Shown one piece after another: positions 13,077 to 55,985 of a DNA stretch of 64,000 bases. Made by a program: the position numbers and the translations under genes. The notes beneath the pieces were generated by a model, which was given only the letters and a program-made list of their open reading frames with translations, ran no database searches and had not been told where the DNA came from. Source of the DNA: Alphaproteobacteria bacterium (GTDB lineage: Bacteria; Pseudomonadota; Alphaproteobacteria; Micavibrionales; Micavibrionaceae); NCBI GenBank assembly GCA_020442385.1, contig JAGRKE010000015.1:34170-98169 (forward strand), read 5' to 3'. Within the stretch, counting starts at the first letter, position 1. Each line of letters starts with the position of its first letter.

Positions 13077-14264
13077 TTACCCAGCCTTTCGGCCATGAAC
13101 CAAAACTTTACGCTCATCGGCAAGCGTACAGGCAAATAGATACGAGTCACCGCCTTCCTGAAGCTTGAGTTTTTTGCGCAAAGAGGCGACATCGCCGGGG
13201 AAGTTGCGGATGCTGAGATTGGCTTTTTTAAGCGGCAAAGCTTTGTGCTGTACAGGCAATATCTCAATAATTTCAAAGGCGCGGCCCGGAAAATCGGGAT
13301 TATAAATCTCGCTGGTATAAAGATGCGTATGTTCGTGCAGTTTTTGCACGCTGTAGCGATGTGCTATTGCGTTAAAGCCGCCCGCCTTTTGAAAGGCCGG
13401 GCCGGGCTCATAAAGGAATGCTTGCGGTAGAGTGGTTTCAGCGCGCGCTTGTTCTTGCGACGGGCTAAATTCAAAGCGTTTAAGCACCGCGCCTTCATCA
13501 TCTAAAGACACACAAATGCGCGGAATATCCTCGGAAGCTGGCGGGCTTTCAAAATCCAGATCATAAACAACCTCCTTACAATCACCGCGCCACTCCAGAA
13601 TATGCACCGCGCGCACGCAGCCCAGATCAATAATTGCCTGCGCAATATCCAGCATGGGAGAGGTTTTAATCAGCGCACGCTTGGTTTTGGTTTTTAGCAA
13701 CTCCAGCAGCGCGGGCACATCGGGGCTGCAATCCTCCAGCCGGAAAAACCCTTTGCGGGTTTGGGTGCGCCGCTGCGGATCGATCATAATCAGATCGACC
13801 GGCTCTATACGCCCCAGAAAGTTCTCCGCGCTCTCGCAATAAACCTCAATCGGGGTTTGTGTTAGGCGCGCCAGATTATGGCTCAGCAGCGCGGCGGCAT
13901 TCTCCTCACAATCAATGCAGATTCCGCGCTCAAAGCGTGACGCCAGCGCCGCGCAATCAACGCCCGCCCCGCCGGTTAAATCGGCGAAGCTGCGCCCGCT
14001 TGCCAGTACCGCCTTGTACTGTGCCGTGGCGGTGGATGAGGCTTGCTCGATCAAGTCGCTGGACGGAAAAACAATATCGGGATGCTCACTCCAGCTGGGA
14101 ATTTTCACCGCTGCTTTTTGCCGCGCCTTGATCTGATCAAGGATTAAGGGATACGGCCAATCCGCGCTGGGCGGTTTTTTTAGGGCGAGCTCCCTTATAT
14201 CGGCGTCATCATTACGCCGCATGAATTCCTTTATTTCAGGGTCTAAAATATGTTTTAAGATCAT
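13077..14264 (-). CDS. class I SAM-dependent methyltransferase (THUMP-like C-terminal module, tentative)
   Basis: 395 aa with SAM motif I DLTGGAGVDCAAL. The start ATG overlaps the upstream stop (ATGA at 14261-14264). Confidence 0.75.
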   Translation of the reverse strand: MILKHILDPEIKEFMRRNDDADIRELALKKPPSADWPYPLILDQIKARQKAAVKIPSWSEHPDIVFPSSDLIEQASSTATAQYKAVLASGRSFADLTGGAGVDCAALASRFERGICIDCEENAAALLSHNLARLTQTPIEVYCESAENFLGRIEPVDLIMIDPQRRTQTRKGFFRLEDCSPDVPALLELLKTKTKRALIKTSPMLDIAQAIIDLGCVRAVHILEWRGDCKEVVYDLDFESPPASEDIPRICVSLDDEGAVLKRFEFSPSQEQARAETTLPQAFLYEPGPAFQKAGGFNAIAHRYSVQKLHEHTHLYTSEIYNPDFPGRAFEIIEILPVQHKALPLKKANLSIRNFPGDVASLRKKLKLQEGGDSYLFACTLADERKVLVHGRKAG

Positions 14265-28307: not shown

Positions 28308-28394
28308 TGGTGCCCAGAAGAGGACTTGAACCTCCACTCCCTTACGAGAACTACGACCTGAACGTAGCGCGTCTACCAATTCCGCCATCTGGGC
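28308..28394 (-). tRNA. tRNA-Leu (anticodon CAG)
   Basis: 87 nt: GCCCAGATGGCGGAATTGGTAGACGCGCTACGTTCAGGTCGTAG...GGTTCAAGTCCTCTTCTGGGCACCA. Acceptor stem GCCCAGA/TCTGGGC, anticodon loop TTCAGGT, long variable arm, encoded CCA. Confidence 0.93.
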
Positions 28395-31310: not shown

Positions 31311-31571
31311 ATGAAAGCTGAACAAACCCGCCAAGAAATTCGTGTCATCGTGCCACCCGCGCGTTTGGGGGATCATATCAAAGCGTTGCAGACGGAATTT
31401 CCGGGCTCCGACGCGGATGCGAAATTTTCTTTTGGTGGAAAGCCAACAGGAACGATTATTCGCTTTTTTGCTGCGGCCGCGGATCTGGATGGGCTGCAAG
31501 AGAGAATTGAAAAGGCAACGGGCTATAAAATGGCCAAGACGGATGAATATAATTTCACCGTATCTACTTAA
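31311..31571 (+). CDS. hypothetical 86-aa protein
   Basis: ATG 31311 (MKAEQTRQEIRVIVPPARLG...). The track start TTG 31251 coincides with a -35-like TTGACA and is unlikely. Confidence 0.5.
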   Translation: MKAEQTRQEIRVIVPPARLGDHIKALQTEFPGSDADAKFSFGGKPTGTIIRFFAAAADLDGLQERIEKATGYKMAKTDEYNFTVST

Positions 31572-34063
31572 ACGTCACTGAAATCACGCACCAGAATTTC
31601 GCGCTTACCCGTTGGGCTGGCTTTGGAAATAATGCCTTGGCGTTCCATTTCCTCGATAATGCGCGCCGCGCGGTTATACCCGATTTGCAGGTAACGCTGG
31701 ACGAAGCTGGTGGAGGCCTTGCCCTCGCGCGCGACCAGCGCGACCGCCTGATCATACAGCTCGTCAACCTCGCTGCCGCTGTCATTACCGCTGCCGCCGC
31801 CGAACATGGCGTTCATCACATCGCTATCGCCGAAATCGCCGTCCTCATCGGTGATGTCATCGATATATTGCGGCTGGCTTTGATTGCGCAGGAAGTCACA
31901 GACTTTTTCTACATCTTTGTCCGATACGAACGGGCCATGCACGCGGGTGATACGCCCGCCCGGTGCCATATACAGCATATCGCCCATGCCTAGAAGCTGC
32001 TCTGCCCCACCTTCACCAAGGATTGTGCGGCTGTCGATTTTCGAGGTGACAGAGAAAGAAATACGGGTCGGGAAGTTGGCTTTAATCACGCCCGTAATAA
32101 CGTCAACTGATGGGCGCTGCGTGGCCATAATCAAGTGAATTCCGGCGGCGCGCGCCATCTGCGCCAGGCGCTGAATGGCGGCCTCAACGTCTTTTCCGGC
32201 CACCAGCATCAAATCGGCAAATTCATCAACCACCACGATGATGTAAGGCAGCTCGGAAAGGTCCATCGGCTGCTCTTCAAAAACAGGTTTGCCCGTATCG
32301 GGATCAAAGCCGGTTTGAACGCGGCGCATTAAATTCTCGCCCTTCTTCGCGGCTTCGCGCACGCGCGCGTTATAGCCCTCAATATTGCGCACACCCAGTT
32401 TGGACATGGCGCGATAGCGGTCTTCCATTTCTTTGACCGTCCATTTCAACGCGACCACGGCTTTGCCCGGCTCGGTCACCACGGGTGAAAGCAAATGCGG
32501 AATATCGTCATAAACGGACAGCTCCAGCATCTTCGGATCAATCATGATAAAGCGGCATTTTTCCGGCGGCAGAGCGTAGAGGATCGAACAAATCATCGTA
32601 TTCACCGCAACCGATTTACCAGAGCCCGTTGTTCCGGCGACCAGAAGGTGTGGCATTTTCGCCAGATCGGCCAGAATGGGTTGCCCGCCAATATCCTTAC
32701 CCAGAATGAGCGGCAGCTTGGCCTTGGTTTTTTCGAACACGCCGGTCGAGAGCAGCTCTTGCATATACACGGTTTGGCGCACTTTATTGGGCAGCTCAAT
32801 CCCGATCACATTGCGCCCCGGCACAACCGCCACGCGCACGGATACAGCGGACATAGAGCGCGCAATATCATCAGCCAGTGAAATCACCCGGCTGGATTTA
32901 ACGCCCGGTGCGGGCTCCAGTTCATACAGCGTGACCACAGGGCCGGGATGAATGCTAACGATATCGCCCTCGATTTTGTAATCAGCCAAAACATTTTGCA
33001 AAAGCTCCGCATTCTTGCGCAGCGCTTCTTCATTCATGTGCGGCGCTTCGGTTTCCTCGGGTGGCTCCTGAATCAGGTTCAGCGGCGGGAATTCCCATTC
33101 GCCATTATCAAGGGAGAATTTTTGCTGACTGGGCGATTGCGATTTCTTCTCCGCCGCTGCCGCTTTTGGAGCAACGACAGGAATATTGGCTCTGGCCGCT
33201 GGCTCCGGCATTAGATCATCATCGTCTTCAGGATAATCGTAATCGCTTGCAGCAGGCGCGTCCGATATTGTCGGTGCACGGCGCTGCGGCGCTTCTTTCT
33301 TAAGGCGCGGCAGGGCAATATTCAAAGACGGGAATTGCGGGGTGTAGCTCTCATCATTGTAATGACGCACCCAGCCGATAAAGCCAAGAGCCATCGAATA
33401 GGTGAAGACCGCACCGGCGATCAACAGGTCTTTGGCTTTGATCAGAATGCTCAACATTTCTGATTTCGTGACGGCGCCTGCATAGGCGAAAGTGGCAAGG
33501 AAGAGCGCTGCTGCGATTCCCGGAATGCCGATATCGGCCAAGAAAGCCGAGCTGGAGCGGATTTTTTCAAGCAGGAGCGTTCCCGCGCTGGAACCCAGAT
33601 AGGGATGAACGGCCCATTCCCCGGCGGGAATTTGTGCCAGAGCGATAGACAGGCACAGCGTTGAAACCAGCAGGGCACAAGCGCGCAGCCAAAGCGGTGA
33701 TAAAATGTCGCGCCGCCAGCAACGCACGCCCCAAATGATAAATCCGAACGCGAGCGCCAAAGATCCGATCCCCATTGTCTGGAGTAAGAGGTCGGATATC
33801 CACGCACCTGTTGATCCGCCTAGATTGGTTATGTTCCCATCCGCCGCAGCCGTGTTCCAAGAAGGATCATTGTGATCGTAAGTGATCAGCGAGATCAGCA
33901 AGAACAACCCCGTTAAGGCGAGCGTTGCGGCAATAATATCCACCAGCCTGCGCGCAAGGAAAGCCTGCACCGGCACGGGCAGAAGGGAAACTAGAAAGCT
34001 ATTGGATGATTTTTTGCGCTTTTTGTTTTTAAGGGGGCGCTTGATTGTACGGGCTCGTGCCAT
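31568..34063 (-). CDS. ftsK: DNA translocase FtsK
   Basis: N-terminal TM domain, Pro-rich linker, motor with VAGTTGSGKSV Walker A, and a gamma winged-helix tail. The likely start is ATG 34063 (MARARTIKRP); the track start is 34153. Confidence 0.95.
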   Translation of the reverse strand: MARARTIKRPLKNKKRKKSSNSFLVSLLPVPVQAFLARRLVDIIAATLALTGLFLLISLITYDHNDPSWNTAAADGNITNLGGSTGAWISDLLLQTMGIGSLALAFGFIIWGVRCWRRDILSPLWLRACALLVSTLCLSIALAQIPAGEWAVHPYLGSSAGTLLLEKIRSSSAFLADIGIPGIAAALFLATFAYAGAVTKSEMLSILIKAKDLLIAGAVFTYSMALGFIGWVRHYNDESYTPQFPSLNIALPRLKKEAPQRRAPTISDAPAASDYDYPEDDDDLMPEPAARANIPVVAPKAAAAEKKSQSPSQQKFSLDNGEWEFPPLNLIQEPPEETEAPHMNEEALRKNAELLQNVLADYKIEGDIVSIHPGPVVTLYELEPAPGVKSSRVISLADDIARSMSAVSVRVAVVPGRNVIGIELPNKVRQTVYMQELLSTGVFEKTKAKLPLILGKDIGGQPILADLAKMPHLLVAGTTGSGKSVAVNTMICSILYALPPEKCRFIMIDPKMLELSVYDDIPHLLSPVVTEPGKAVVALKWTVKEMEDRYRAMSKLGVRNIEGYNARVREAAKKGENLMRRVQTGFDPDTGKPVFEEQPMDLSELPYIIVVVDEFADLMLVAGKDVEAAIQRLAQMARAAGIHLIMATQRPSVDVITGVIKANFPTRISFSVTSKIDSRTILGEGGAEQLLGMGDMLYMAPGGRITRVHGPFVSDKDVEKVCDFLRNQSQPQYIDDITDEDGDFGDSDVMNAMFGGGSGNDSGSEVDELYDQAVALVAREGKASTSFVQRYLQIGYNRAARIIEEMERQGIISKASPTGKREILVRDFSDV

Positions 34064-34351
34064 GAAAGTTACGCTCAGCAGGGGTTGAAAAATTAAGAAT
34101 AAGGAAGACCAGCGCGGGTGGCTGCCCCTAGAGGATAACAAATCCGTGGACATAAAAACAAGTAAAAGCCTGCGTAGCGCTTTAAATTTTAACCGTTTTT
34201 ATCGACCGGCGAGCGGTTTTCCCCAGCCTAAAAAATGCAATTGTACGCAATTAACCTTTTGTTAACCTTTCTCCCATAAAAAGCCCTGATAAAAGTACGA
34301 AAAAGTACTTTTTATGCGCGATGAGCCTCTTTTAAGACTGAGTTTAAACCT

Positions 34352-43926: not shown

Positions 43927-46662
43927 TTAATTCAGCAAGGCTGGTAGTGCACCGCCGCCTTTGACGCGGTTGATCAGCAAGTTTCCGCCCGTATAAATCT
44001 GTCCTGAAATTTGTCCGGCCGGATCGCCAGCGCCCTCTTGGAAGGCGGAGACGCTCACACCAGACCAGCGCAAGATTTGGTTCGGGATCAAATCGATCAG
44101 CTTAAAGCTGGAGAGCGCCATCATATACACCAAAATTACATACAGCACTGTGTAGAAAATTTCATCAACGGGTGAACGTAAAAAGTCTGCAAAATCACCA
44201 CCGCCGCCGGTTTCTGCGATCTTTTTAGTGTCAAAACCACTCACATTTTCAACCACAACCGTGAAAATATCATTCAACACATGAACCATGCTGGAGAAAA
44301 GAATGATGCTTGCCAGCAAACCGGTTACGATCAAAACGGGACGTATAAAGATTTCGAGGAGTAGAAAATATCCGTTTGACGCATCACGTCCGGGAATGCC
44401 TTCCCCATCAATGCGAATATGGGCCATGGCCCACAGTGGCATCGCAACCATGGCTTCGAAAATACTTTTGATCCAACCACTGACCGCGAACATGAAATAG
44501 ACAAAGGGCAGCATCGGTAAAATGTAATACAGAATAATACTCATCAGCATCACGGAAAGACCGAGGCCCCACAATGCGCCGCCGATTTGCTGCAATGCTG
44601 CTTTTTCCGCATCTCCGATATTGCCAATAAGACCAGCAAAGTTTTGCCCGCCGGCACCCAGCGCCAAATTTCTGACAGAAGCTTGCATCATCGCGCGGCC
44701 CAAAGAGCTGAGCTGGGCAAGAGGGTGAACGTCGACATTGTCTCTTATGCTGAAAATTCCACTGGTCCCAAGCAGGGCATTAATACCGTCGACCACAATG
44801 TTACCAGTTCTTTTATTGTAAGTCGTTTCGGTGAGTGAATCGGTGTTCCAGAGGCTATAGGCGCGGTATAAAACGGCGGCAATTTTTTGATCTTCTTCAT
44901 GCTCATACGAAATTTTTCCTCCGCTCTCCAATCTGGGATTAAACACGGCTTGTCCGCTGATATTCTGGTTTTTAGCGAGTTTGTTGGTGCGTACTGTTTC
45001 CATGACGGCGGGAAATTTCACAACATTCGGAAAGTTATAGAGCGCCGAGGCAGCCGCGCCGTTAATCTCCGCAATGCGGTTATACCACAGCGCCGCACCT
45101 GCCCAGCCCTTTGCTTTTAAAGCGGGTAGCATGCTGGTCAGATCTGGATTGGAAGTAATTTCTGCGCGTGCGTCTTGAAGGGCTTGTTCAGCCAAGGTTT
45201 TCAAATTGTTGTTGTAGTGGGTGTAGCGATCATTTGCGAAATTTGATTCCAAAACACAGTCAGGCTCGTTTTCACTAACGTAGAAATGTTTGATCAAGCA
45301 GTGTGCGTGATTGCGAATAGCTGTATCAAACCACATAGATCTTACAAGATCATAGTAAAGTTCTTGCAGCCCACCTAAATCGGCAGAAGGGTCATAAGGG
45401 ACTTTCAAGGCAAGACGTCCGCACATCGGATTTACATTGCCTGTAAATTCTTTTGTAAACTCATCACTGGGATCGTCCGGATCAACGGGTGGCGCAATGT
45501 AATGGCCAAAAGAAATAACAATCTGCGCTTGTTTTGCCGTTGTAGTGTTTGAACCGCTTCCAACAACATAATTGACCGCTTGCCCGTATGTTGTGGAAAG
45601 TAATTTTTTAGATGTTCTTGCATCGCTGGTCACAATATAGGCATCAATCGGCATATCTTTGCCGTATTTTCTTGGGGCTGCCATTTCTTCAATAATTTTG
45701 CAGGTCTTTGCGAGATACATGAAATTGAGCAAATCATATTGACCCAGTTCGGGGATCGTCGGAGAGGCCAGAATTTTCTCGCCTTCAATCAGCTCGCCTG
45801 TTGTCAGGTTTTCGTTAAAATAGCCCCAGGCGTTGGTTGCGAAGTTTGACCCGACTTTCGCGGTCCATAGTGTTACAAGCTGCGCGCCGTTTAATCCTTC
45901 ATTCGCACCGCCCATATTTAGTGGCGCAAGCATGGCAAAAAACAAAATCAGGCGCACCGGCGCCCAGGCGCGGTTGGTGCGTTGGCCAAACGGAGTCCCG
46001 GTCGCGGCTGTCTCTGCAACAATCGCTGTAAAGAAATACAGGATGATCAAAACCGCAACGAAGAAGAGGCCGATTGAATAAAAATGAAAAAGCTTATGCA
46101 GGGCGAGTTGAAACGAATCCGGGTATGGTGCGCTTATTGTTGTGATTGGATCGCCCCTCATATCGGCGCATGGCGTTGACGTGGACACACAAGATTCAAA
46201 AATACCCCGTGTTCCGAAAACCCGGTCGAGCATAATAAAAGCGATGTCTTGTTCCGGTCCGCCGCCGCCATGGGCATAGGGGGAATTTACCGAAAAAAGA
46301 TCAGGGATGGATTGTGCCATCACATCTTGCTGCACGAATAAGGAAACGGAAAAGAGTGCGATTTGAACGCCCATCAGTACCAGTCCGCTAAGCGTGACAA
46401 AATAAACCAGAATTTTGTCGATATTCTTTTTATCAAAAACCAGATGATTGGCGGCTTCGCCCAGAACATGGCGAATACCAAAGCGCCCTCTGTTGGCAGG
46501 ATTAAGATAGGAGTGATTATCAGGCAGCAAGCCGATCGCGCTGTAGACAACCGCCATCAAATATGAAATGTGAACAAAGCCGGATGTGAACAAGTCTTTG
46601 AGCCGCGGAAAAAAACCGGGGAGCAGTGTGTATTTCAAAAATTTTGTTTTTGTTGCGCTCAT
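43927..46662 (-). CDS. large polytopic membrane protein, paralogue 3 of 3 in transcription order (DotA/TraY-like, tentative)
   Basis: 911 aa. Shares with the two upstream genes: GIRHV.GEAAN, the Cys-x7-Cys loop, AETAATGTPFGQRTNRAWAPVRL, GSNFATNAW, GWAGAALWYN, HPLAQL, and the C-terminal TM bundle with PLWAMAHIRIDGEGIPG and FKLIDLIPNQILRW. Confidence 0.8.
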   Translation of the reverse strand: MSATKTKFLKYTLLPGFFPRLKDLFTSGFVHISYLMAVVYSAIGLLPDNHSYLNPANRGRFGIRHVLGEAANHLVFDKKNIDKILVYFVTLSGLVLMGVQIALFSVSLFVQQDVMAQSIPDLFSVNSPYAHGGGGPEQDIAFIMLDRVFGTRGIFESCVSTSTPCADMRGDPITTISAPYPDSFQLALHKLFHFYSIGLFFVAVLIILYFFTAIVAETAATGTPFGQRTNRAWAPVRLILFFAMLAPLNMGGANEGLNGAQLVTLWTAKVGSNFATNAWGYFNENLTTGELIEGEKILASPTIPELGQYDLLNFMYLAKTCKIIEEMAAPRKYGKDMPIDAYIVTSDARTSKKLLSTTYGQAVNYVVGSGSNTTTAKQAQIVISFGHYIAPPVDPDDPSDEFTKEFTGNVNPMCGRLALKVPYDPSADLGGLQELYYDLVRSMWFDTAIRNHAHCLIKHFYVSENEPDCVLESNFANDRYTHYNNNLKTLAEQALQDARAEITSNPDLTSMLPALKAKGWAGAALWYNRIAEINGAAASALYNFPNVVKFPAVMETVRTNKLAKNQNISGQAVFNPRLESGGKISYEHEEDQKIAAVLYRAYSLWNTDSLTETTYNKRTGNIVVDGINALLGTSGIFSIRDNVDVHPLAQLSSLGRAMMQASVRNLALGAGGQNFAGLIGNIGDAEKAALQQIGGALWGLGLSVMLMSIILYYILPMLPFVYFMFAVSGWIKSIFEAMVAMPLWAMAHIRIDGEGIPGRDASNGYFLLLEIFIRPVLIVTGLLASIILFSSMVHVLNDIFTVVVENVSGFDTKKIAETGGGGDFADFLRSPVDEIFYTVLYVILVYMMALSSFKLIDLIPNQILRWSGVSVSAFQEGAGDPAGQISGQIYTGGNLLINRVKGGGALPALLN

Positions 46663-46686
46663 ATTGTTTCGTTAGGACTTATCGTA

Positions 46687-49554
46687 TTAGCCACCCGCTT
46701 CTTTGGACCCTTGTTTTCCGCCCGAACCAATATTTTTAAGCAGACCTTCTACCCCTCCACCAATAGAGGAGATGGCTTGTTGGCCACCGACACCGGCCGT
46801 GCCAACCAGACCTTCTGCGGCATTTTGGTTCTGGTCGTTAAAGGTCGAGACGCTCTGTCCCATCCAGCGCAGAATATTGTTCGGGATTAGATCGATCAGT
46901 TTGAAGGACGACATGCCCATCATGTACACGATGATCGCGTAAACAATTGTATAGAAAAATTCATCAACCGGGCCGCGTAAAAATTCCATGATATTGTCAT
47001 CGCCAGAGCCGCTGGCGCCTGTAACGTTGACCGTCATAATATCCCACACATCATTCATGACCGTTACCAAAGCCGAGAAGGTTGAAATACTGGCGAGCAA
47101 TCCAAAAATAATCAGGATTGGCCGCAGGAAAATTTCAAAAATCAGGAAATAACCGTTTACAGCAGCCTGCCCCGGCAGGCCGTTTCCATCAATACGGATA
47201 TGGGCCAGTGCCCAAAGCGGCGCACCGACCATGGCCTCGAAAATGCCTTTGACCCATCCGCCGATGGCAAAGAAGAAATAGATGAAGGGCAAGAATGGAA
47301 TAACATAGAACAACAAAAATCCGATGGTGATCGTTATCATGACAATGCTCATGATTGGTCCGATGAACAGCCCTTGGCTTTTCTCATCCGTGGCGCTGAA
47401 TAGGGCATATGCAGTATTGACCAATATTGCGCGTGTAGAGGCTTCAATCAGCGAGCGGCCGATTTGTACAAGCTGTGCGAGTGGGTGCACTTCTCTGTTC
47501 TCGCGCATTTGAAACAGACCTTCGGTGCCAAACATGTAATTTAAAACATCGATAAACGGGTTGTTTTGTGCAGCTGTTTTTGAGGATGACCCATAATCAG
47601 CAGCTTGCCAATATTTATAGGCTTCCCACAAAGCGTTCGCATAATCTTTCTCAACGGGTTGATTAAATGTGATGGCTTCACCACCCGGCAAAACCGGATT
47701 AAAACGATCATTCCCACTAACAAACGTCAATTTTTGTTTGCGCTGTGCAAGAACGTCTTCCATGACTTGCGGATATTTGGCAACCAAAGGCTTATTGTAA
47801 ACGGCCCCTGCTAATGAACCGTTGAGTTCGGCGACCTTGTTGTACCAAATACCGGCGCCTGCCCAGCCCTTTTCTTTTAAGACTTGGCTGAAATCCCATT
47901 TTGGTGATTTAAGCTGCTCTTTAACAGCGCCCTCACCTATGTCACCCATACCATTGAGCCACATGTCCAGAGGATAGGCCAAGCCACCGCCACCAGAATC
48001 TGGGCCTTTTAATACTCTTTCCATCAAAACTTTTAATCGCTGGATGTTTTCTTGCGCCATTTCTACGGTCGGCAAGAGCTCTTCCACACAATATCCGCCG
48101 CCGCCCCATAACGACGTTGTACAGGCAACATGTACATGCGGGTAGCTCACAGGATCTTCAGCGTTTTGTTCAAAGATCCAGTACCAGCTTAGATTAATAA
48201 TGTACCAGTAATAGCGCTGCATAATCGAAGCGCCGGTGTCGGCATATTTCTCGGCTTCACCGGGCGGTACGGGAACACCACCCGAAGGTTTTGGAGGACG
48301 TGGGTCGGTGAGCGGCAGAACAATCTCTCCACATACCGGGCCAACATAGCCTTTATATTTTCCGAATTTTTCTTTGTCTTCGTACCCAAAGCGAATGGTC
48401 ACATATTCATCGCCGTTGGCGAAATCAAGCATATCTTCGTAGCTGGTATACCCGCCTGGATCTTCACCATATTTTTTTTCCAGCTGAAGGGCGCCATTGT
48501 TTGTGCCTGATAAGGTGTCTCTCACAAGGTATGGTTCTATCTCAACAACATTACCTGAATCAAAAGTGCGGGCAAGCTCCAGCTCTCTACAAACCTTGGC
48601 GGCGTAGATCATTTGAAGAAGCCCGGCGAGTTCCGGGGTCTGCAATTCTGCGACCATTTTTGAATTACTGCCGCCGCCGGCGATCGTGTTACCTGCCTGC
48701 GCGTTAAAGCCCAGTTCATCGTTAAACAGATTCCATCCATTGGTCGCGAAGTTTGAGCCGTATTTGGCGGCATATAAAACAATATATTGCGAGCTGTTAA
48801 TTCCGTTTGTAAGTGGCATCAAAAGGCCGATGGCGACAACAATCCGGATAGGGGCCCAAACCTTATTAAAACGTTTTCCGAAAGGGGTTCCCGTTTGCGC
48901 AGTTTCGGCAATGACGGTCATCATGAAGTAAAAAGCGATAAAGACGGCAACGACCAAAAGCCCGGTACTGTAAACAGCGAAGAGTTTGTGTGTAGCATGG
49001 TGAATCGGGAAAGGCCAGCTTGTTCCGCTTAGAAACCAATTTATTGTCGCGCCGCTTGCATCAACGCAATCGGTTCCTGTTGATACACAAGAGTTAAAAA
49101 TATTCTCAACCCCGAACACCATATCCATCATGATCATGGCGATATCTTGAGCCGGGGGCGCATTCGCTGTGCCGAAGAAACTGAGGAAGTTGGTTCCTAT
49201 TGTTGCGGCGGCCACCGGCTGCACAAAGGCTGCGCTGATAAGTAATCCGATCTGAAGTACAATTAAAACAAAGCCGGTTAGAACCAAAAAGAATAAAAGA
49301 ATCTGATCTATATTTTTTCGACTTAAGGTTAAATTATTGGCCGCTTCGGCGATCACATGACGAATGCCATAGCGACCCATGTTGGCCGGATTGAGATAAG
49401 GGTGATTATCCGGCAGCAGGCGTACAACTTGATAAACCAGCGCAATGAAATAAGGCACATATTGAAAGCCCGAAGCAAACAGCGCCTTAAAGCGCGGCCT
49501 GACCTGCGGCAGGAAGACATAGCTCAGAACTTGTTTTTTGCTTATGCTTGTCAT
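46687..49554 (-). CDS. large polytopic membrane protein, paralogue 2 of 3 (DotA/TraY-like, tentative)
   Basis: 955 aa with the same motif set (AETAQTGTPFGKRFNKVWAPIRI, GWAGAGIWYN, HPLAQL, PLWALAHIRIDGNGLPG, FKLIDLIPNNILRW). 24-nt gap to the next gene. Confidence 0.8.
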   Translation of the reverse strand: MTSISKKQVLSYVFLPQVRPRFKALFASGFQYVPYFIALVYQVVRLLPDNHPYLNPANMGRYGIRHVIAEAANNLTLSRKNIDQILLFFLVLTGFVLIVLQIGLLISAAFVQPVAAATIGTNFLSFFGTANAPPAQDIAMIMMDMVFGVENIFNSCVSTGTDCVDASGATINWFLSGTSWPFPIHHATHKLFAVYSTGLLVVAVFIAFYFMMTVIAETAQTGTPFGKRFNKVWAPIRIVVAIGLLMPLTNGINSSQYIVLYAAKYGSNFATNGWNLFNDELGFNAQAGNTIAGGGSNSKMVAELQTPELAGLLQMIYAAKVCRELELARTFDSGNVVEIEPYLVRDTLSGTNNGALQLEKKYGEDPGGYTSYEDMLDFANGDEYVTIRFGYEDKEKFGKYKGYVGPVCGEIVLPLTDPRPPKPSGGVPVPPGEAEKYADTGASIMQRYYWYIINLSWYWIFEQNAEDPVSYPHVHVACTTSLWGGGGYCVEELLPTVEMAQENIQRLKVLMERVLKGPDSGGGGLAYPLDMWLNGMGDIGEGAVKEQLKSPKWDFSQVLKEKGWAGAGIWYNKVAELNGSLAGAVYNKPLVAKYPQVMEDVLAQRKQKLTFVSGNDRFNPVLPGGEAITFNQPVEKDYANALWEAYKYWQAADYGSSSKTAAQNNPFIDVLNYMFGTEGLFQMRENREVHPLAQLVQIGRSLIEASTRAILVNTAYALFSATDEKSQGLFIGPIMSIVMITITIGFLLFYVIPFLPFIYFFFAIGGWVKGIFEAMVGAPLWALAHIRIDGNGLPGQAAVNGYFLIFEIFLRPILIIFGLLASISTFSALVTVMNDVWDIMTVNVTGASGSGDDNIMEFLRGPVDEFFYTIVYAIIVYMMGMSSFKLIDLIPNNILRWMGQSVSTFNDQNQNAAEGLVGTAGVGGQQAISSIGGGVEGLLKNIGSGGKQGSKEAGG

Positions 49555-49583
49555 TCTTTAATTACCTAAATTGTTCCCCATTA

Positions 49584-52457
49584 TTATTTTTTTCTCGTGC
49601 CCAGCAATTCACCCAATTGGCCAGCTTCTTTTCCGAGAACAGATCCTACACCTTGCCCGAATTGTTGTGCGCTGCTTGTAAGCTGGCGACCAAAGGTCAG
49701 ACCACCAACGGCGGCATAACGTGTAAGCCCTTGCGTGGCATCATCATTAATATCGTTGAAGGAGGACACACCCGCACCCATCCAGCGCAGAATATTATCC
49801 GGGATCTGATCAATCAGTTTAAAGGAAGCGGTGGCCAGCATGTACACAATGATGGTGTACAAGACCGTAAAGAAGAACTGATCGATAATGCCGCGCTTCA
49901 AAACAATGCCGCCGACATCCAGAATGGTTGCATCATATTGATCGGCATAGCCTGTCAAGTTGTCTAGAACGAGTGGCCAAATTGAGTGAAGAACACGCAC
50001 CTGCGCTGTGAAAATAGTAACCGCAGCGACCAGGCCGACGACAATCAGAATCGGCCGCACGAAAATTTCGAAAATCAGGAAATACCCGTTGGCGGCGGAA
50101 TCACCGGGCAGACCTTCCCCATCAAGGCGCAAATGCGCCAGCGCCCAGAGCGGCACACCAACCATAGCCTCGAAAATTCCCTTCACCCATCCGCCGACAG
50201 CAAAGAAGAAATAAACGAACGGCAAGAACGGTAAAATGTAGTAAAGAATAAAGCCGGCAGTCAGGCCGATAAAAGCAATGTTAGTGGCCAGTCCGGCGGC
50301 TGTGCCCTTGGCCAGCCCGAACATCTTGTCAAAAAGATTGCCCATTGTGCCGTCAAGCGTCGCGCCTAAAACATTGATGATTGCGCTGTCAACCAGGCTT
50401 TTTCCAACGGCAGTTAATTGCGCGAGCGGATGAATATAGGCATTTTCACCGCGCATCGCCATCAGGCCGCTGGTGCCGAAAACAAGGTGTATAATATCTT
50501 GGAAAACCGCGCCTGTTGATGTTGAATCTTCGCTGATATTGTTCGCGCCGTCCAGATACCAATATTTATAATAACTGCTCAGCCCCTTGGCGATTGTGGT
50601 TGCATCGGAACCGGCAAGATTGCTTTCAAACAGATCGACCAATCTCTCACCTTTAAAACTTGGATCAAATTTATCAATGGGCGCGGGGGCGGAGTCGTTG
50701 CTGGTTTTTTGTTCGCGCACCTCTTCCATAATTACAGGATAAGATACAGGGCGCGGCACGCTTGTAACGGCGCTGATGAAGGCACCGTTTAGGCTGTTTA
50801 TACGGTTGTACCAAATGCCAGCGCCGCCCCATCCATATTGAAGGATTTCATCGTCCTTCTCGTTACTTTGATTGGCCAGATTATAATCATTCCAGATTTG
50901 TTCAATATGAGATGCCAGATCGCCCTGAATGTCGGCAACCATTTCTGTTTTTAGATTGTTTCCCAGCTCCGCTGTTGCGCAGCTTGGATTATCAGAAACA
51001 AAGATCCCATTACACATAAGGGCTTCATCAGATGGGCCGCATATCGTACAAGATACGTAATAAGGTGCTCCGGAGGCGCTAATCCACTGGTCGTTAAAGT
51101 ACAGAGCCATATATTTTTGAGAAATTTGTATGAGGTTATACTGCGCAGAACCACCTGTGTGCCAAAGGTTTTTAATTAATTCATAATAATATTGTTGTAC
51201 CGCGCCCGGGCCTGCACCGCCCGCTGTGGAGGCATCAACGATTGAAATATTGATCTCACCACAGGTCGGTTCAACCGCGCCTTTATATTGCTTGTTTTTC
51301 TCTTCGTCACGGACACCAAAACGGATGCGAATATCCGACTTATCGTAGAAATCAAGCGCAGTTTGGTAAGTGGTGCTTGGGGTCACTTCTTGAAATGTTG
51401 CGCCACCGCCGCCGCTTAAACTTGGGTTTTTAACGAAATAGGCTTTTATGGTGTTCATGGGCTGCGTGTAATAATCGCGCTGCATTGGGGGTACATAGTT
51501 TTTACTCTCATCCTGATGCCAGTATGAATAGGCGCAGGCATGGGCCAAGGACATGAAGGCAACGGTCGGCGCAATATTGGGTGTTTGCGGAAGGGCTATA
51601 TTGTTTTGGGTTTCACCTGTCGCGCCGATATCACCAAGTTCTTCATTAAACTTAAGCCAGCCGTTTGTCGCCATATTCGATCCGATTTTCGCGGCGTAGA
51701 GCGTGATGAATTGGCCGCTGTTTAAACCGTAATTAATCGGGACCAGCAATCCAAGCGCGACCACCAGCCGGATTGGCACCCAGACATTTTGGAAGCGTTG
51801 ACCGAAGGGTGTGCCTGTGACGGCGGTTTCGCCAATCACAACCACCACGAAATACAGAAAAATCATCGCGGCAACGACCAGTAGACCGAGCGAATAAAAA
51901 CGAAACAGGCTGTGTAACCCAGCATGGAACGCATGCGGCAGATTACCCGGTTCAACAGGGCCGTTTTCCGTACAGGCGACACCAATATCGACACAGGACT
52001 TAAAAAATCCTGGAATGCCAAAAACGCGGTCCATCATCATAAAGGCGATGTCACGCTCGGGCTGTCCGTTACTGAAAATTGATTGCGCCAAAGCGGGCTG
52101 AATAACATAGCCATAAAGCAGCAGGGCGAGCTGCATCACCAAGATGACAATGCCCACCATAAGGGCGGTGAAGATAATAATCTGGTCGATATTTTTGCGG
52201 CTGATGACAAGGTTGTTTGCGGCCTCGCCGATTACATGGCGAATGCCGAACTTGCCGATATTTTGCGGCTCAAGATAAGGGTGATTGCTGGGGAGAAGCT
52301 TAACGATTCCGTAGATCGAGGCCATGAGGAAGGCAAGATAACCAAAGCCTGAGGCAAAAAGGTTTTTCGCGCGCGGAATAATTCCGGGCAGGATCATGTA
52401 TCCCAAAACTTTTTTTGCTTGAACGCCTTGCACGTTGCCCCTCGCCACTCTACTCAC
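49584..52457 (-). CDS. large polytopic membrane protein, paralogue 1 of 3 (DotA/TraY-like, tentative)
   Basis: 957 aa, GTG start, with the same motif set (GETAVTGTPFGQRFQNVWVPIRL, GWGGAGIWYN, HPLAQL, PLWALAHLRLDGEGLPG, FKLIDQIPDNILRW). 29-nt gap to the next gene. Confidence 0.8.
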   Translation of the reverse strand: MSRVARGNVQGVQAKKVLGYMILPGIIPRAKNLFASGFGYLAFLMASIYGIVKLLPSNHPYLEPQNIGKFGIRHVIGEAANNLVISRKNIDQIIIFTALMVGIVILVMQLALLLYGYVIQPALAQSIFSNGQPERDIAFMMMDRVFGIPGFFKSCVDIGVACTENGPVEPGNLPHAFHAGLHSLFRFYSLGLLVVAAMIFLYFVVVVIGETAVTGTPFGQRFQNVWVPIRLVVALGLLVPINYGLNSGQFITLYAAKIGSNMATNGWLKFNEELGDIGATGETQNNIALPQTPNIAPTVAFMSLAHACAYSYWHQDESKNYVPPMQRDYYTQPMNTIKAYFVKNPSLSGGGGATFQEVTPSTTYQTALDFYDKSDIRIRFGVRDEEKNKQYKGAVEPTCGEINISIVDASTAGGAGPGAVQQYYYELIKNLWHTGGSAQYNLIQISQKYMALYFNDQWISASGAPYYVSCTICGPSDEALMCNGIFVSDNPSCATAELGNNLKTEMVADIQGDLASHIEQIWNDYNLANQSNEKDDEILQYGWGGAGIWYNRINSLNGAFISAVTSVPRPVSYPVIMEEVREQKTSNDSAPAPIDKFDPSFKGERLVDLFESNLAGSDATTIAKGLSSYYKYWYLDGANNISEDSTSTGAVFQDIIHLVFGTSGLMAMRGENAYIHPLAQLTAVGKSLVDSAIINVLGATLDGTMGNLFDKMFGLAKGTAAGLATNIAFIGLTAGFILYYILPFLPFVYFFFAVGGWVKGIFEAMVGVPLWALAHLRLDGEGLPGDSAANGYFLIFEIFVRPILIVVGLVAAVTIFTAQVRVLHSIWPLVLDNLTGYADQYDATILDVGGIVLKRGIIDQFFFTVLYTIIVYMLATASFKLIDQIPDNILRWMGAGVSSFNDINDDATQGLTRYAAVGGLTFGRQLTSSAQQFGQGVGSVLGKEAGQLGELLGTRKK

Positions 52458-52727
52458 TCTACCGCACTTGCCGCCTGAATTTTAGCGAAATTCTTATTTA
52501 TTTTACCATCATTCGCGCACGTCGTGCCAATCTACCAGTCATAATTCTGACAGAATTTGGTTAAGAGTTTGTTATGAAATGGCTAAATATCACCTGAATG
52601 TGGCGCGGGCGATATTTGTAAGTCATTGATATATAACAATTTTTATTTCAACCAAAACTGAAATTTAAAAAGACGGCAGAGGATTTCGCGATTGTAGTAA
52701 TAGGAAGAACACATTATCATTCAACCG

Positions 52728-53285
52728 ATGATACGTATCCTCATGTTTTTACTCGTTTTATGGTCTGTTCCCGCGTTCGCGCAGGCACCTGCGAAAACCG
52801 TGATCCATGACGCGGTGGAGGCGGAGTTGCTGCTGGGTAAGCATTTGTTTACTAGTCTTGGTTTAGAACGCGATCTTCATTATACACGCTACGGTGAGTC
52901 AGTTATCTACAAAAAAGACGGTGTTTATTATATGTATGCGGGCCAGATCAGGTTTCATGAAACAAGAGAAGAGCCGTATCGCGGCGGCGGTTATATCATT
53001 GCCAAAGGGACGATCACCGAAATCAAACACAAGGAATTTGTGTTTGAAGGGGTGATTGAAACCCAGACGCTGCAAGGACACGAGTGGTATCCTTGCGTGC
53101 GCACAGGACGATTTATGTTTAGCCGTGATCACGATGATGAGACACAATATGAGCATGATGTTGATTTCTGGCGTTATAATAATGGCTCAGAAGATTATAA
53201 GAGATGTGATCCAAGATCAGATTACTTAGGTATTGATATGTATGTTGATGATATTTTACATGTCTATAATTTTACTGATCCATAA
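52728..53285 (+). CDS. secreted hypothetical protein
   Basis: 185 aa with signal peptide MIRILMFLLVLWSVPAFAQA. No family recognised. AT-rich. Confidence 0.6.
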   Translation: MIRILMFLLVLWSVPAFAQAPAKTVIHDAVEAELLLGKHLFTSLGLERDLHYTRYGESVIYKKDGVYYMYAGQIRFHETREEPYRGGGYIIAKGTITEIKHKEFVFEGVIETQTLQGHEWYPCVRTGRFMFSRDHDDETQYEHDVDFWRYNNGSEDYKRCDPRSDYLGIDMYVDDILHVYNFTDP

Positions 53286-53593
53286 ACTGGAAATATCGGT
53301 TTCGTTCTGCCTCTCCGTTATATTTTTCGTCTCTGAACTTTTTCAGAGCCCCAAGGAATATTTTTTTCTTCTTTGGATCTTTGGCGACATCACTGAGGCC
53401 TCTTAAAGTTTCTGAACCAGCGCTTGCTTTTTCTGGGCGGTCAATTTTGACATGTTTGTTGCGGTGTATCGTGGCTTTTGGGCGGGGTGTTGACGGTTTC
53501 CTGAAGCAGATGCAGTGCGCGCATAATGCGGAAATGCCCTTCCATCATTTCATTGAGGCAATAAAGCAGGATTTCACGGTCTTTTTCGGTCAT
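53272..53593 (-). pseudogene. small gene apparently split by a +1 frameshift (about 106 aa if repaired)
   Basis: Frame A runs from ATG 53593 to TGA 53441 and encodes MTEKDREILLYCLNEMMEGHFRIMRALHLLQETVNTPPKSHDTPQQTCQN. Frame B is open for 90 codons from 53544 to TAA 53272 but has no usable start codon. It reads ...HVKIDRPEKASAGSETLRGLSDVAKDPKKKKIFLGALKKFRDEKYNGEAERNRYFQFMDQ. Confidence 0.3.
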
Positions 53594-53638
53594 TTAAGGA
53601 ATTCTGGTACTTATGTGTACAAGAAAGCATGTTCACAT

Positions 53639-53839
53639 ATGGACATGAGTTTGGCAAGACGTTTGGCAGATAATTTAAGAAAAAGGCGTAGCGGCAAAAC
53701 GCAGGAAGTTTTTGCGCGTAAGTTAGGCATTAGTCGCGTCAGTTTGACTCGTATCGAGAATGCGGAACAAAACGTCTCTCTCAAAACGCTGCAACAGCTC
53801 TGCAAAGCCCTCAAATGTGATATCGGCGATTTGTTTTAA
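53639..53839 (+). CDS. XRE-family helix-turn-helix regulator (66 aa)
   Basis: MDMSLARRLADNLRKRRSGKTQEVFARKLGISRVSLTRIENAEQNVSLKTLQQLCKALKCDIGDLF. The upstream part of track ORF 53381..53839 is unlikely to be coding. Confidence 0.75.
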   Translation: MDMSLARRLADNLRKRRSGKTQEVFARKLGISRVSLTRIENAEQNVSLKTLQQLCKALKCDIGDLF

Positions 53840-53847
53840 GTGATAAA

Positions 53848-53872
53848 CTATTTCTTCTCCAGCAGGCCTTTT
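53848..53872 (-). repeat. 3-prime tail module, copy a
   Basis: Plus strand CTATTTCTTCTCCAGCAGGCCTTTT, which on the minus strand is AAAAGGCCTGCTGGAGAAGAAATAG and encodes ...KGLLEKK stop. Confidence 0.7.
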
Positions 53873-54384
53873 AAGTCTTTAAGGCGAGAGCGATATTCAT
53901 TGTCACCAATGGGGTCCCAATACCCTTTAATGGAATCATCTTCGGAAGATTTTACTTCATCTTCCACAAGGCCAATATAAATCACGCCCGTTTGCATATT
54001 TGAACCTGGGCCGTTATCTTCGCCCTGCGTAATAACTCTGAGATATTTGTGTTTTCCATTCGTAAAATAAAAATCACAATATGCCGTTCCCATGCCTGTA
54101 CATGCGCCCAATTCTTCATATCCTAATTTTAGAAACGGATGCAGATGGCCGTATTTTTCAATGTCATTTTGAATAATCTCATCCCGAAAATCAGTCGTAG
54201 GTATCCAACCGCTTTTTAAAATGATTTTTCGTGCGTCATGGTAAGGCATGTTCATGGTAATAATTTCTTCGCTCTGTTTGATACAGGCAGAGAGTATACA
54301 CAACCCTAATATGCAGAAAACTATACATCGCCTTGTGAAATTATTTTGGATCTTATCATTCAACATAAAGATAAACATATCCAA
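53848..54384 (-). CDS. lipoprotein, paralogue of 54822..55229 (candidate periplasmic immunity-type protein)
   Basis: Lipobox ILSAC. Shares MNMPYHDARKIILKSGW.P, LGYEE...CTG.G...C.FYF.N.K..YL with the other copy. Has an extra C-terminal tail ending LKGLLEKK. The true start is probably an internal ATG just after TTG 54384. Confidence 0.65.
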   Translation of the reverse strand: MDMFIFMLNDKIQNNFTRRCIVFCILGLCILSACIKQSEEIITMNMPYHDARKIILKSGWIPTTDFRDEIIQNDIEKYGHLHPFLKLGYEELGACTGMGTAYCDFYFTNGKHKYLRVITQGEDNGPGSNMQTGVIYIGLVEDEVKSSEDDSIKGYWDPIGDNEYRSRLKDLKGLLEKK

Positions 54385-54388
54385 AAAA

Positions 54389-54419
54389 CTATTTCTCCAA
54401 CAGGTCTTTTACGGTTTTG
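54389..54419 (-). repeat. 3-prime tail module, copy b (out-of-frame relic)
   Basis: CTATTTCTCCAACAGGTCTTTTACGGTTTTG. It would encode ...ARKALIDLKTVKDLLEK stop in a frame different from the overlapping 54409..54762 ORF. Confidence 0.7.
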
Positions 54420-54762
54420 AGGTCAATAAGCGCTTTACGAGCCAAGTACCCAACGTGGCGATTTGTAATGGCAGCAAAGCATAAAAGAAGAGATATATGA
54501 CCATAATATAAAACATGGGTTTCCAAATGCAGACTTGATCGTTGACTGTAGAGTAGATGTCATGCCATCGGGGCTGATACCCTTTTTCCATGTAAGCGCA
54601 TAAATCTTGTCCCGCGTTGTCTCCTAAAAAAGCCCATGAAGCAAGAGCTGAAAACGCCAAAGCCAGCACAATTGTGCTTAAAAAAACATAGCGCACGATG
54701 TTATTTTTTTCTGGTCCAGGGTTTGTTTTTATAGGCGTGGCCAATTTCTTTTCCCATCTCAT
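54409..54762 (-). CDS. small membrane protein (2 predicted TM)
   Basis: 117 aa with VRYVFLSTIVLALAFSALASWAFL and MFYIMVIYLFFYALLPLQIATLGTWLV. No family recognised. Confidence 0.5.
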   Translation of the reverse strand: MRWEKKLATPIKTNPGPEKNNIVRYVFLSTIVLALAFSALASWAFLGDNAGQDLCAYMEKGYQPRWHDIYSTVNDQVCIWKPMFYIMVIYLFFYALLPLQIATLGTWLVKRLLTSKP

Positions 54763-54821
54763 TTACATTTTCACGGCCGGTTGAATTCCAGATTGATCCG
54801 ATTTTTTCGGGTGTTGGGTTT

Positions 54822-55229
54822 TTAATCAATTTCATAGCGAATAGCGGCATAGACAATCTTTGTTTGGATTTCGAAGTGGGGGTCTGGATATTCCCCACTC
54901 GTACCAAGTTTTAGATACTCACCTTTTTCATTTTGAAAATAAAATAAGCAGGCCAGCATGCCTGCCCCTGTACAATCAGAAACCTCAGCATAACCCAGAT
55001 CCCGAAAATAATGTGCAGCAGCTCCTATCTCATCGTATGGCGGCATACCGTCTGCAGGTTTCCATCCACTTTGCAAAATAATTTTTCGTGCGTCATGATA
55101 ATTCATATTCATGATGATGGATTGATTGTTCGCTTCTTTTGCGTAGGTACAAGATGTAAGCAAGAGCAGTGCCAGAAGCCCAAAATAGCTAAATGAAACA
55201 GCATTTTTCTGTTTAAAAATATTATTCAT
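54822..55229 (-). CDS. lipoprotein, paralogue of 53848..54384 (candidate periplasmic immunity-type protein)
   Basis: ATG 55229. Lipobox LLTSC. MNMNYHDARKIILQSGWKP and LGYAEVSDCTGAGMLACLFYFQNEKGEYL. Starts 21 nt after the GH104-like stop. Confidence 0.65.
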   Translation of the reverse strand: MNNIFKQKNAVSFSYFGLLALLLLTSCTYAKEANNQSIIMNMNYHDARKIILQSGWKPADGMPPYDEIGAAAHYFRDLGYAEVSDCTGAGMLACLFYFQNEKGEYLKLGTSGEYPDPHFEIQTKIVYAAIRYEID

Positions 55230-55250
55230 CAAGACATTTATAGCTCTAAA

Positions 55251-55283
55251 CTATTTCTTCTCCAACAGGTCTTTTACGGTTTG
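55251..55283 (-). repeat. 3-prime tail module, copy c
   Basis: CTATTTCTTCTCCAACAGGTCTTTTACGGTTTG. It encodes ...QTVKDLLEKK stop of the GH104-like gene. Confidence 0.7.
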
Positions 55284-55883
55284 ATAATCAGTCAATGCTC
55301 TGTTGTTTAGAATACCTTCATAACGGCTTTTATTGGAGGGGTCTGGTGGCAATGCTGCCCATTCATCAGAGAGATTTTTGATCAATGCCTCCGTACTAAT
55401 CTTACCGGCTTTATATTTCTCGAACCCTCTGTATTCCATGCGTGCTCTGGCCAGTTGATCTTGAAGCTTTTTATCAAAGAGCGCACTTTCATCAACGCCA
55501 AGCTTATCAGCGGCCTCTTTTAAGGTGTTACGCCTAAACTGGTATCGCCCAACAGCTGAAGATCCCCTACCTTCATCAATCATCTCTTTTTGAAGTTTTT
55601 GAACTTTTTTAAGCGTCATTGTGGTCAGGGGCTTTTCTTCGTTGCCATAGATAATATTATAATTATCGCTGCTTTCCAGTTTACCGATGAAATCGAGAAT
55701 CTCGTTGCCTTTGCGGGTTGGGGAAATGGTCTCGGGTTTGTGTGCGGGGGCGGGCGGTTGGCGCTCGCCTTTTCTGCGTGGCACGGGCGGGGCGGTATTG
55801 CGGATCATCCGGCCTGTGGCATCCACATTTTCAGGCAGCTGGCCAAAGCCGCCAATGCGTAAATCATCCTTATTCCAAGGCAT
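55251..55883 (-). CDS. lambda-R-like (GH104) lytic transglycosylase/muramidase with Pro-rich N-terminal extension
   Basis: IGKLESSDNYN, AVGRYQFR, FDKKLQDQLA and EWAALPP parallel the lambda R motifs LAWSEGT, GAGRYQLL and IWASLPG. ATG 55883 has an AAGGAA RBS. No signal peptide. Confidence 0.7.
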   Translation of the reverse strand: MPWNKDDLRIGGFGQLPENVDATGRMIRNTAPPVPRRKGERQPPAPAHKPETISPTRKGNEILDFIGKLESSDNYNIIYGNEEKPLTTMTLKKVQKLQKEMIDEGRGSSAVGRYQFRRNTLKEAADKLGVDESALFDKKLQDQLARARMEYRGFEKYKAGKISTEALIKNLSDEWAALPPDPSNKSRYEGILNNRALTDYQTVKDLLEKK

Positions 55884-55953
55884 GGTTTTATTCCTTTCTT
55901 TCCAGATACAAAAAAGCGCCCGGCGAAACAAAGCAACGCTTTGTTCGCGTCTT

Positions 55954-55985
55954 AAAAAAGCAAAAGCCCCATTTTTGGGGCTTTT
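55954..55985 (-). terminator. intrinsic terminator after ettA
   Basis: Stem AAAAGCCCC (55962-55970) / GGGGCTTTT (55977-55985) with a U-run on the minus strand. A second hairpin lies at 55923-55948. Confidence 0.75.

Follow-up and report, generated by a model that had tools for sequence, protein, structure and literature searches.

A tandem array of three DotA/TraY-family membrane proteins in the core chromosome of Micavibrio-like alphaproteobacteria

The stretch of 64,000 nucleotides (nt) analyzed here, referred to as the window (positions 34,170 to 98,169 of contig JAGRKE010000015.1, assembly GCA_020442385.1, from a bacterium of the Micavibrionaceae), carries on its minus strand three head-to-tail genes encoding proteins of the DotA/TraY family, whose members fall structurally into the VirB6 class of type IV secretion system (T4SS) components. 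Our analyses revealed that this array is a core-chromosome operon, not part of a plasmid, an integrated conjugative element (ICE) or a recognizable T4SS locus, and that the triplication predates the radiation of the sampled Micavibrio-like alphaproteobacteria, being ancient, vertically inherited and under purifying selection. The family assignment itself is not new, and automated pipelines already name homologs "DotA/TraY family protein"; the novelty lies in how the genes are arranged, in how that arrangement is conserved and in the lineage that carries it. A first-pass annotation, made from the sequence alone, had suggested that these genes do not form a described system, and we likewise found no published description of one, a literature search having identified no paper on these genes in Micavibrio or on any tandem DotA array. 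The open reading frames (ORFs) it had proposed were recovered at exactly the same coordinates, strand, lengths and gaps, as follows:

49584–52457, minus strand: paralog 1, DotA/TraY family, 957 amino acids (aa) when read from the GTG at 52457
46687–49554, minus strand: paralog 2, DotA/TraY family, 955 aa
43927–46662, minus strand: paralog 3, DotA/TraY family, 911 aa
49555–49583, minus strand: spacer between genes 1 and 2, 29 nt
46663–46686, minus strand: spacer between genes 2 and 3, 24 nt
52458–52727, minus strand: AT-rich region of 270 nt upstream of the trio, probable promoter region
52098–52457, minus strand: N-terminal module of paralog 1, ~120 aa; genes 2 and 3 begin with this module as well

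The start of the first gene probably lies eight codons further downstream, at 52433, as the ENA gene call is of 949 residues and homologs align from residue 9. An exact look-up in the contig index retrieved this ENA version of paralog 1 and no record of paralog 2.

All three proteins scored well above the curated cut-off (100 bits) of the NCBIfam DotA/TraY model TIGR04346, with 249.8, 242.2 and 238.3 bits for paralogs 1, 2 and 3, respectively (E-values 6e-74 to 2e-70). Paralogs 1 and 3 matched model positions 25/26–656 of 656 in a single stretch (residues 181–894 of paralog 1 corresponding to positions 26–656), and paralog 2 matched in two stretches, the better one spanning positions 304–656. 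They are not Legionella-type DotA equivalogs, as against NF033886, the model for those proteins with a cut-off of 500 bits, they scored only 158.7, 171.7 and 147.9 bits, with a good match restricted to the C-terminal 220–230 residues. A Pfam scan gave no family above threshold for any of the three, and hence no match to the VirB6/TrbL model. The sole sequence match in the PDB was to Legionella DotA (9ngy/9nh0, E-value 2e-17), over the first transmembrane (TM) helix pair and the C-terminal hydrophobic block. An AlphaFold2 model of paralog 1, built from a 107-sequence alignment (mean predicted local distance difference test score, pLDDT, 83.1; predicted template modeling score, pTM, 0.81), led to the same protein: a Foldseek search of the PDB identified 9ngy_FP1 (DotA) as the sole significant match (E-value 1.4e-12, probability 1.00, 987 aligned columns), the next match having an E-value of 0.17, and the comparison with the R388 TrwI/VirB6 structure (7o3v_J) was not significant (E-value 2.4, probability 0.10). 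The DotA/TraY resemblance that had first been proposed is thus borne out by the profile search, the one PDB sequence match and the fold comparison on the monomer.

The hydropathy profile (peaks at about residues 88–124, 181–217, 223–245, 720–762, 788–824 and 856–882) and the secondary structure of the AlphaFold2 model outline a protein that begins with a weakly hydrophobic helix (~26–51) and a very hydrophobic one (87–122), continues through a short loop with a Cys-x7-Cys pair to two DotA TM helices placed around the motif GETA.TGTPFGQR...W.P.R (about 176–273), and then passes into a mixed alpha/beta domain of ~400 residues with conserved cysteines, followed by long hydrophobic helices (~677–893), whose counterparts in Legionella DotA make up the channel chamber, and a C-terminal helix. 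This is the architecture of DotA, in which two N-terminal TM helices precede a large cysteine-bearing extracytoplasmic domain and long helices are bundled at the C-terminus, and it agrees with the polytopic layout with a large extracytoplasmic insert that was first proposed. Six cysteines are in register and conserved in all three paralogs, consistent with the extracytoplasmic domain being disulfide-bonded, as it is in Legionella DotA. Paralogy of the three products was likewise upheld, their pairwise identities being 37–42% (42% for 1 versus 2, and 37–39% for 1 versus 3), and all of the motifs first read from them are present in the translations, including the three Cys-x7-Cys loops, GETA.TGTPFG[QK]R, GW[AG]GA, HPLAQL and the C-terminal block.

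The N-terminal module, with the motifs LP..PR, SGF, LLP.NHPYL, FGIRHV.GEAAN and KNID and a long hydrophobic helix, is specific to this subfamily and could serve as a simple annotation marker for the clade. It lies outside the matches to TIGR04346 and Legionella DotA, both of which start near residue 181, and the alignment to plasmid TraY starts only at residue 108; it is nonetheless among the better-conserved parts of all three paralogs. In the AlphaFold2 model the module has helices at 26–51, 72–81 and 87–122, with residues about 31–100 confidently predicted. A phmmer search with the module against 1.84 billion representative proteins identified 474 matches, 422 of them with E-values below 1e-10; among the 150 matches listed it was always N-terminal, the full-length proteins were about 900–1100 aa long, and the shorter proteins with the module are most likely contig-end fragments. 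Directly after the long hydrophobic helix there is an A-x-A-like motif, QPALA/QS (52086–52094, residues ~122–124), which has equivalents in paralogs 2 and 3 and in which Ala124 is invariant in 107 sequences. As this motif resembles a signal-peptidase I site, the ~120 aa of the module may act as a leader that is cleaved off. At the other end of the protein, some first-position orthologs (P0079, P0045, P0096, P0107 and P0063; 1040–1091 aa) have an additional match to PF13884 Peptidase_S74 in their last 50–60 residues (26–28 bits versus a cut-off of 22), which is not found in the window protein; Peptidase_S74 is the self-cleaving trimerization chaperone of phage tail fibers and endosialidases, and to see it joined to a membrane protein of the DotA class is unusual.

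A scan of 185,579 species, with one genome per species, identified 357 matching stretches, of which we examined the best 80 loci. All of these were labeled Micavibrio, Alphaproteobacteria bacterium or alike, and they included the cultured M. aeruginosavorus HCB189. Homologs at 43–61% identity came from metagenome-assembled genomes (MAGs) labeled Alphaproteobacteria, Micavibrio sp., Rhodospirillaceae or Bdellovibrionales. We observed that many MAGs with this alphaproteobacterial locus (L014, L018, L019, L035, L051 and others) are labeled Bdellovibrionales or Pseudobdellovibrionaceae, the former label being a consequence of the NCBI taxonomy still filing Micavibrio under Bdellovibrionota. In all 58 complete loci, i.e., those with the array flanked by both ettA and mlaC, the gene order was ettA on the same strand, the DotA-like genes, and then the convergent mlaC-mlaA-lptG-lptF on the opposite strand, an order that recurs with very few exceptions in the related genomes surveyed. 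Three copies were present in 54 of these arrays, four in the remaining 4, and fewer in none. The spacers are as short as those in the window (medians of 25 nt between genes 1 and 2 and 26 nt between genes 2 and 3 in 81 related arrays), and in most genomes ettA lies ~200 nt upstream of the array and mlaC ~40 nt downstream.

A neighbor-joining tree of 236 copies, rooted on plasmid TraY and built without bootstrap, resolved three clades that track array position, with window paralogs 1, 2 and 3 falling in the position-1, position-2 and position-3 orthogroups, respectively, and with a long branch (1.18) between the whole subfamily and plasmid TraY. It is because the copies form three positional orthogroups that we regard the triplication as ancient and vertically inherited, and as these are kept together in one operon in all complete arrays, we argue that the copies are non-redundant. 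Identity was 46–50% within orthogroups, 40–42% between them and 26% to plasmid TraY, and 100 alignment columns were at least 90% conserved across all three orthogroups. Four-gene arrays were seen at loci L056, L058, L064, L076 and L078, where most second- and third-position copies fall in the position-2 clade; this suggests that position 2 was duplicated later, within a single subclade.

The chromosomal setting of the trio is that of a conserved housekeeping backbone, as the first-pass annotation had described it. The window reads rpsA, cmk, aroA, a GGDEF-EAL gene, cysS, rpoN, lptB, lptA, kpsF, recR, lolA, ftsK, pheA, a cytochrome c gene and holC, followed by pepA, lptF, lptG, mlaA, mlaC, the trio and ettA, and this order matches GMV_144 to GMV_200 of M. 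aeruginosavorus ARL-13 over ~60 genes. The ARL-13 orthologs of the trio lie outside its genomic islands, and the guanine-plus-cytosine (GC) content of the array in the window is that of its flanks; together with the synteny to ARL-13 and the presence of the array in 58 other genomes, these features speak against carriage on a plasmid or ICE. Beyond ettA the conserved neighbors are a methyladenine glycosylase, TerD proteins and a Na/Ca exchanger, and in one genome with a relocated trio the neighbors are instead DsbD, a redoxin, a histidine kinase and a YkuD transpeptidase.

Searches by tblastn and with Pfam/NCBIfam identified no other T4SS gene, whether in the window or, for 85 related loci, at up to 10 kb from the array. 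Pfam or NCBIfam scans of ~50 window ORFs, with every long one included and a few short ones left out, yielded only housekeeping proteins or proteins of unknown function. The tblastn queries were 23 proteins of Stenotrophomonas pACYCa.6E, the plasmid with the best match, all encoded in its mating-pair formation (MPF_I) region and including its coupling protein, IcmP-like protein, IcmT/TraK, DotD/TraH and DotB-like ATPase; against the window and the 85 related loci (~1.6 Mb), TraY alone matched. No DotB/TraJ, DotO/TraU, DotL/TrbC, DotC, DotD, DotG, DotH or IcmT/TraK was thus found co-located with the array, as type IVB secretion systems (T4BSSs) or MPF_I systems would have, and no candidate for the VirB5-class protein IcmX adjoins it. 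These two lines of search agree with the earlier claim that other secretion-system genes are absent from the window, and its description of the set as an orphan holds for the neighborhood (the window and 85 loci) but is not established genome-wide. An 861-aa ORF at 31568–34153 was considered as a coupling-protein candidate, ARL-13 having an "icmO" product of 860 aa, and was rejected because the four Pfam domains of FtsK are all present in it, identifying it as FtsK. This FtsK includes the 4TM domain, and for its syntenic ARL-13 counterpart GMV_178, given a length of only 1512 bp, the start may have been mis-called or the N-terminal domain may be missing.

Evidence that the trio is transcribed comes from the RNA-seq table for ARL-13 (PMC3189940), which lists three "putative membrane protein" genes between Ttg2 (mlaC) and an M50 peptidase gene plus ettA. 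These genes, GMV_196, GMV_197 and GMV_198 (2694, 2763 and 2742 bp), match the HCB189 locus in sizes and order and are the orthologs of the trio, GMV_196 being that of window paralog 3. Their gene expression index (GEI) values were:

GMV_196: attack phase 11.9, attachment phase 3.9
GMV_197: attack phase 4.8, attachment phase 1.7
GMV_198: attack phase 3.6, attachment phase 2.8

Only 33% of ARL-13 genes are transcribed in attack phase, when housekeeping genes are silent (PMC3189940), and the neighboring lptF/G, pepA and efp have GEI values of ~0 in that phase. The trio is therefore among the minority of genes that are on while ARL-13 swims in search of prey; the ARL-13 paper gives no discussion of GMV_196–198 (PMC3189940). 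In the window, the region upstream of the trio has a weak sigma-70-like match (52720–52691, 9/12 positions, a consensus match only), a strong terminator at 55985–55962 closes ettA upstream of the trio, and no terminator-like hairpin was found in the trio spacers; however, the promoter and terminator scan gave site counts not above those of shuffled sequence, so that it offers weak support for the operon boundaries.

Legionella DotA was shown only in 2025 to be a VirB6-class gatekeeper channel: it forms a pentamer whose hydrophobic helices enclose a chamber, resembling VirB6, and together with a pentamer of the VirB5-like IcmX it makes a protochannel, closed and lying along the machine's axis, from which host contact opens a ~45 nm conduit. 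Legionella cells also release both IcmX and DotA, a protein with five disulfides, and DotA requires IcmX, DotG and the ATPases for its assembly and work. By analogy with the DotA and VirB6 pentamers, we propose that the three products assemble into one or more inner-membrane/periplasmic channel chambers, probably as a mixed ring, the simplest reading being either such a ring or rings with different extracytoplasmic domains. The lineage would have domesticated this channel for its contact-dependent epibiotic lifestyle, using it as a gate or conduit through which proteins, and possibly other macromolecules, would cross the envelope of the predator on their way to attached prey. In keeping with the attack-phase expression, its construction would precede contact with prey. 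Partners encoded at other sites would drive it, among them, as a candidate, the product of a gene annotated as icmO (DotL, the coupling ATPase).

The ARL-13 table gives this name to GMV_383 (2583 bp, 860 aa; PMC3189940 Additional file 4). The gene adjoins gyrB and argS, lies outside any island and is expressed in both phases, and its three hypothetical neighbors within GMV_382–385 (255, 193 and 404 aa) resemble in size those around the coupling protein of pACYCa.6E (259 aa, type IV coupling protein 846 aa, DUF882 protein 206 aa and IcmP-like protein 369 aa). Its putative product may be a coupling-protein partner of the trio.

We consider it an even call whether the trio is indeed a DotA-class channel that is fixed in the core genome, used in a contact-dependent lifestyle, and both prebuilt and powered by partners encoded elsewhere. 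Several points weigh against this. None of the partners that DotA requires, i.e., IcmX, DotG and the ATPases, was found in the window or the related loci, and the Foldseek TM-score to DotA was only 0.40/0.44, the model being a monomer and the structure a pentamer in situ. Expression is only modestly biased to the attack phase, and for this there is one RNA-seq experiment on one species; a predatory lifestyle is documented for cultured Micavibrio only, not for the many MAG lineages that carry the trio. At the 90% level no column was fixed within each orthogroup and yet different between them, and with no such diagnostic column, specialization of the subunits is not proven by sequence alone. What our data establish is the vertically inherited DotA-class status of the trio; its assembly state and its role in predation we infer. 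As an undescribed candidate part of the predator's cell-contact apparatus, the trio is nevertheless a concrete target, being a lineage-wide, transcribed, channel-class set, for the question of how attached epibiotic predators transfer material across two envelopes, for which the genome paper suggested type I/II secretion and hemolysins. If it is truly separated from the rest of a machine, then either a DotA-class subunit works outside a canonical T4SS, or a diverged, scattered T4BSS has gone unnoticed in a whole order.

The latter possibility, that the trio are dotA paralogs of a complete T4BSS dispersed or highly diverged elsewhere in the chromosome, and thus the amplified channel subunit of a conventionally working T4BSS with nothing orphan about it, we regard as somewhat unlikely. 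The authors of the ARL-13 study reported no evidence for type III or IV secretion (PMC3189940), and no other tra, vir, dot or icm name occurs among the rows listed from their table; however, DotC, DotD, DotH and IcmX are poorly recognized by general annotation, and as Dot/Icm components are missed in this way, the 2011 statement is weak evidence against a diverged T4BSS. There is also a documented precedent in the Rickettsiales, with scattered rvh genes and multiple rvhB6 copies, and the "icmO" label of GMV_383 and the sizes of its flanking genes would suit a dispersed system. Set against these is the finding that neither the window nor the ~1.6 Mb flanking the array in 85 loci holds another T4BSS gene. 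A bolder version of the proposed channel, in which a type IVB machine has been stripped down to three co-assembling DotA-class subunits, perhaps with a lone DotL/IcmO-like ATPase, and works without an outer-membrane core or VirB4- and VirB11-type ATPases as a small translocon, fixed in the chromosome, that injects proteins into attached prey or draws material from it, is in our judgment unlikely.

We also considered that the trio might serve the envelope biogenesis of the predator itself, e.g., as a lipid or lipopolysaccharide (LPS) conduit acting with the adjacent Mla and Lpt proteins, as the array adjoins mlaC-mlaA-lptG-lptF in nearly every genome and recent work has connected lipid mixing with the Dot/Icm machine. 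However, mla and lpt run towards the trio on the opposite strand, which leaves no room for co-transcription; as the entire ~60-gene region is syntenic with ARL-13, adjacency carries little functional signal, and some genomes have the trio elsewhere without mla or lpt. Moreover, lipid mixing in Legionella requires DotG and not DotA, and we find this explanation very improbable. We give practically no credence to the idea that the array is a decaying remnant of an ICE, or an assembly duplication, without current function: DotA/TraY is otherwise typical of conjugative plasmids (3,889 plasmids matched, 3,236 of them conjugative) and ARL-13 has ICE-like islands, but the three ORFs are intact, every complete array keeps three or four DotA-like genes with extensive conservation across the orthogroups, the array is transcribed, lies outside the islands and does not differ in GC content from its surroundings, and paralogs only ~40% identical were recovered as the same trio, at 99–100% identity, in an independent ENA metagenome contig as well as in complete form in 58 other genomes, so that relic, pseudogene and assembly artifact are all refuted by the conservation data.

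Several further features of the region were observed. Between ettA and the trio the window has a group of small genes that is shared only with its ENA twin:

52728–55931: low-GC islet (about 0.41) with six small genes

Related genomes have ~200 nt at this point, and M. aeruginosavorus has an M50 peptidase gene there. Two of the islet genes encode a 185-aa protein and a Y4mF/HipB-type helix-turn-helix (HTH) protein of 152 aa, and the products of the other four (178, 117, 136 and 226 aa) are of unknown function; the 185-aa protein is recorded as PF27214 PM1083 in the contig index and had no match in our own Pfam scan, and PADLOC and Pfam searches of the islet identified a generic HTH alone. In 17 related loci (e.g., L021:1166-6289) a protein of ~1,500–1,700 aa without a Pfam domain is encoded just upstream of ettA, on the strand of the trio, and is followed by a DUF3137 protein (L021:6971-8077). 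A second low-GC patch (about 0.41–0.44) in the window, between a THUMP-like methyltransferase-type gene and cysS, contains a 550-aa ORF on the minus strand (14261–15913) with no Pfam or PADLOC match. The sole tRNA gene of the window is a tRNA-Leu(CAG) on the minus strand (28308–28394), and no sign of an integrase or mobile DNA was noticed among the adjoining ORFs that were scanned.

Among characterized systems, the closest in structure is the Dot/Icm system of Legionella, whose DotA (9ngy/9nh0) shares with the window proteins the order of TM1, TM2, a large disulfide-bearing extracytoplasmic domain and C-terminal long hydrophobic helices. The identity in the structural alignment is, however, only ~14%, and where Legionella DotA has a simple signal peptide the window proteins have the conserved ~120-aa N-terminal module. 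Legionella, a pathogen of eukaryotic cells, has one such gene, whereas the array has three or four paralogs, lies in the core chromosome without icmX, dotG, dotO, dotB or other dot/icm genes nearby, and belongs to a predator of bacteria. The TraY proteins of IncI-type (MPF_I) plasmids such as Stenotrophomonas pACYCa.6E are also members of TIGR04346, and the best plasmid relative aligns over 70% of the protein; identities are nonetheless only 21–31%, and most of the 3,889 matching plasmids align over the C-terminal 17–19% only. In these plasmids traY is a single-copy gene on a mobile element, among genes for IcmP-like, coupling, IcmT/TraK, DotD/TraH, ATPase and PilV proteins, in contrast to the window trio, which is triplicated, chromosomal, vertically inherited and alone. 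With respect to organization, the nearest analog is the rvhB6 array of the Rickettsiales, a comparison already drawn in the first-pass annotation and made apt by the present structural classification of DotA as a VirB6 equivalent. The rvhB6 proteins belong to the VirB6 sequence family proper and are accompanied by the rest of a type IVA machine, which is kept in the Rickettsiales without a VirB5 partner; neither feature was found for the window trio, so that the likeness is one of organization and not of family membership. In both cases strongly diverged VirB6-class channel subunits stand in tandem (here three or four copies, 40–42% identical between orthogroups) and are extended at the N- or C-terminus, and in both the host is an alphaproteobacterial lineage living at the expense of other cells; the missing VirB5 partner of the Rickettsiales is a further parallel, and for the five rvhB6 paralogs of Rickettsia the same alternatives of a mixed ring or separate rings have been discussed.

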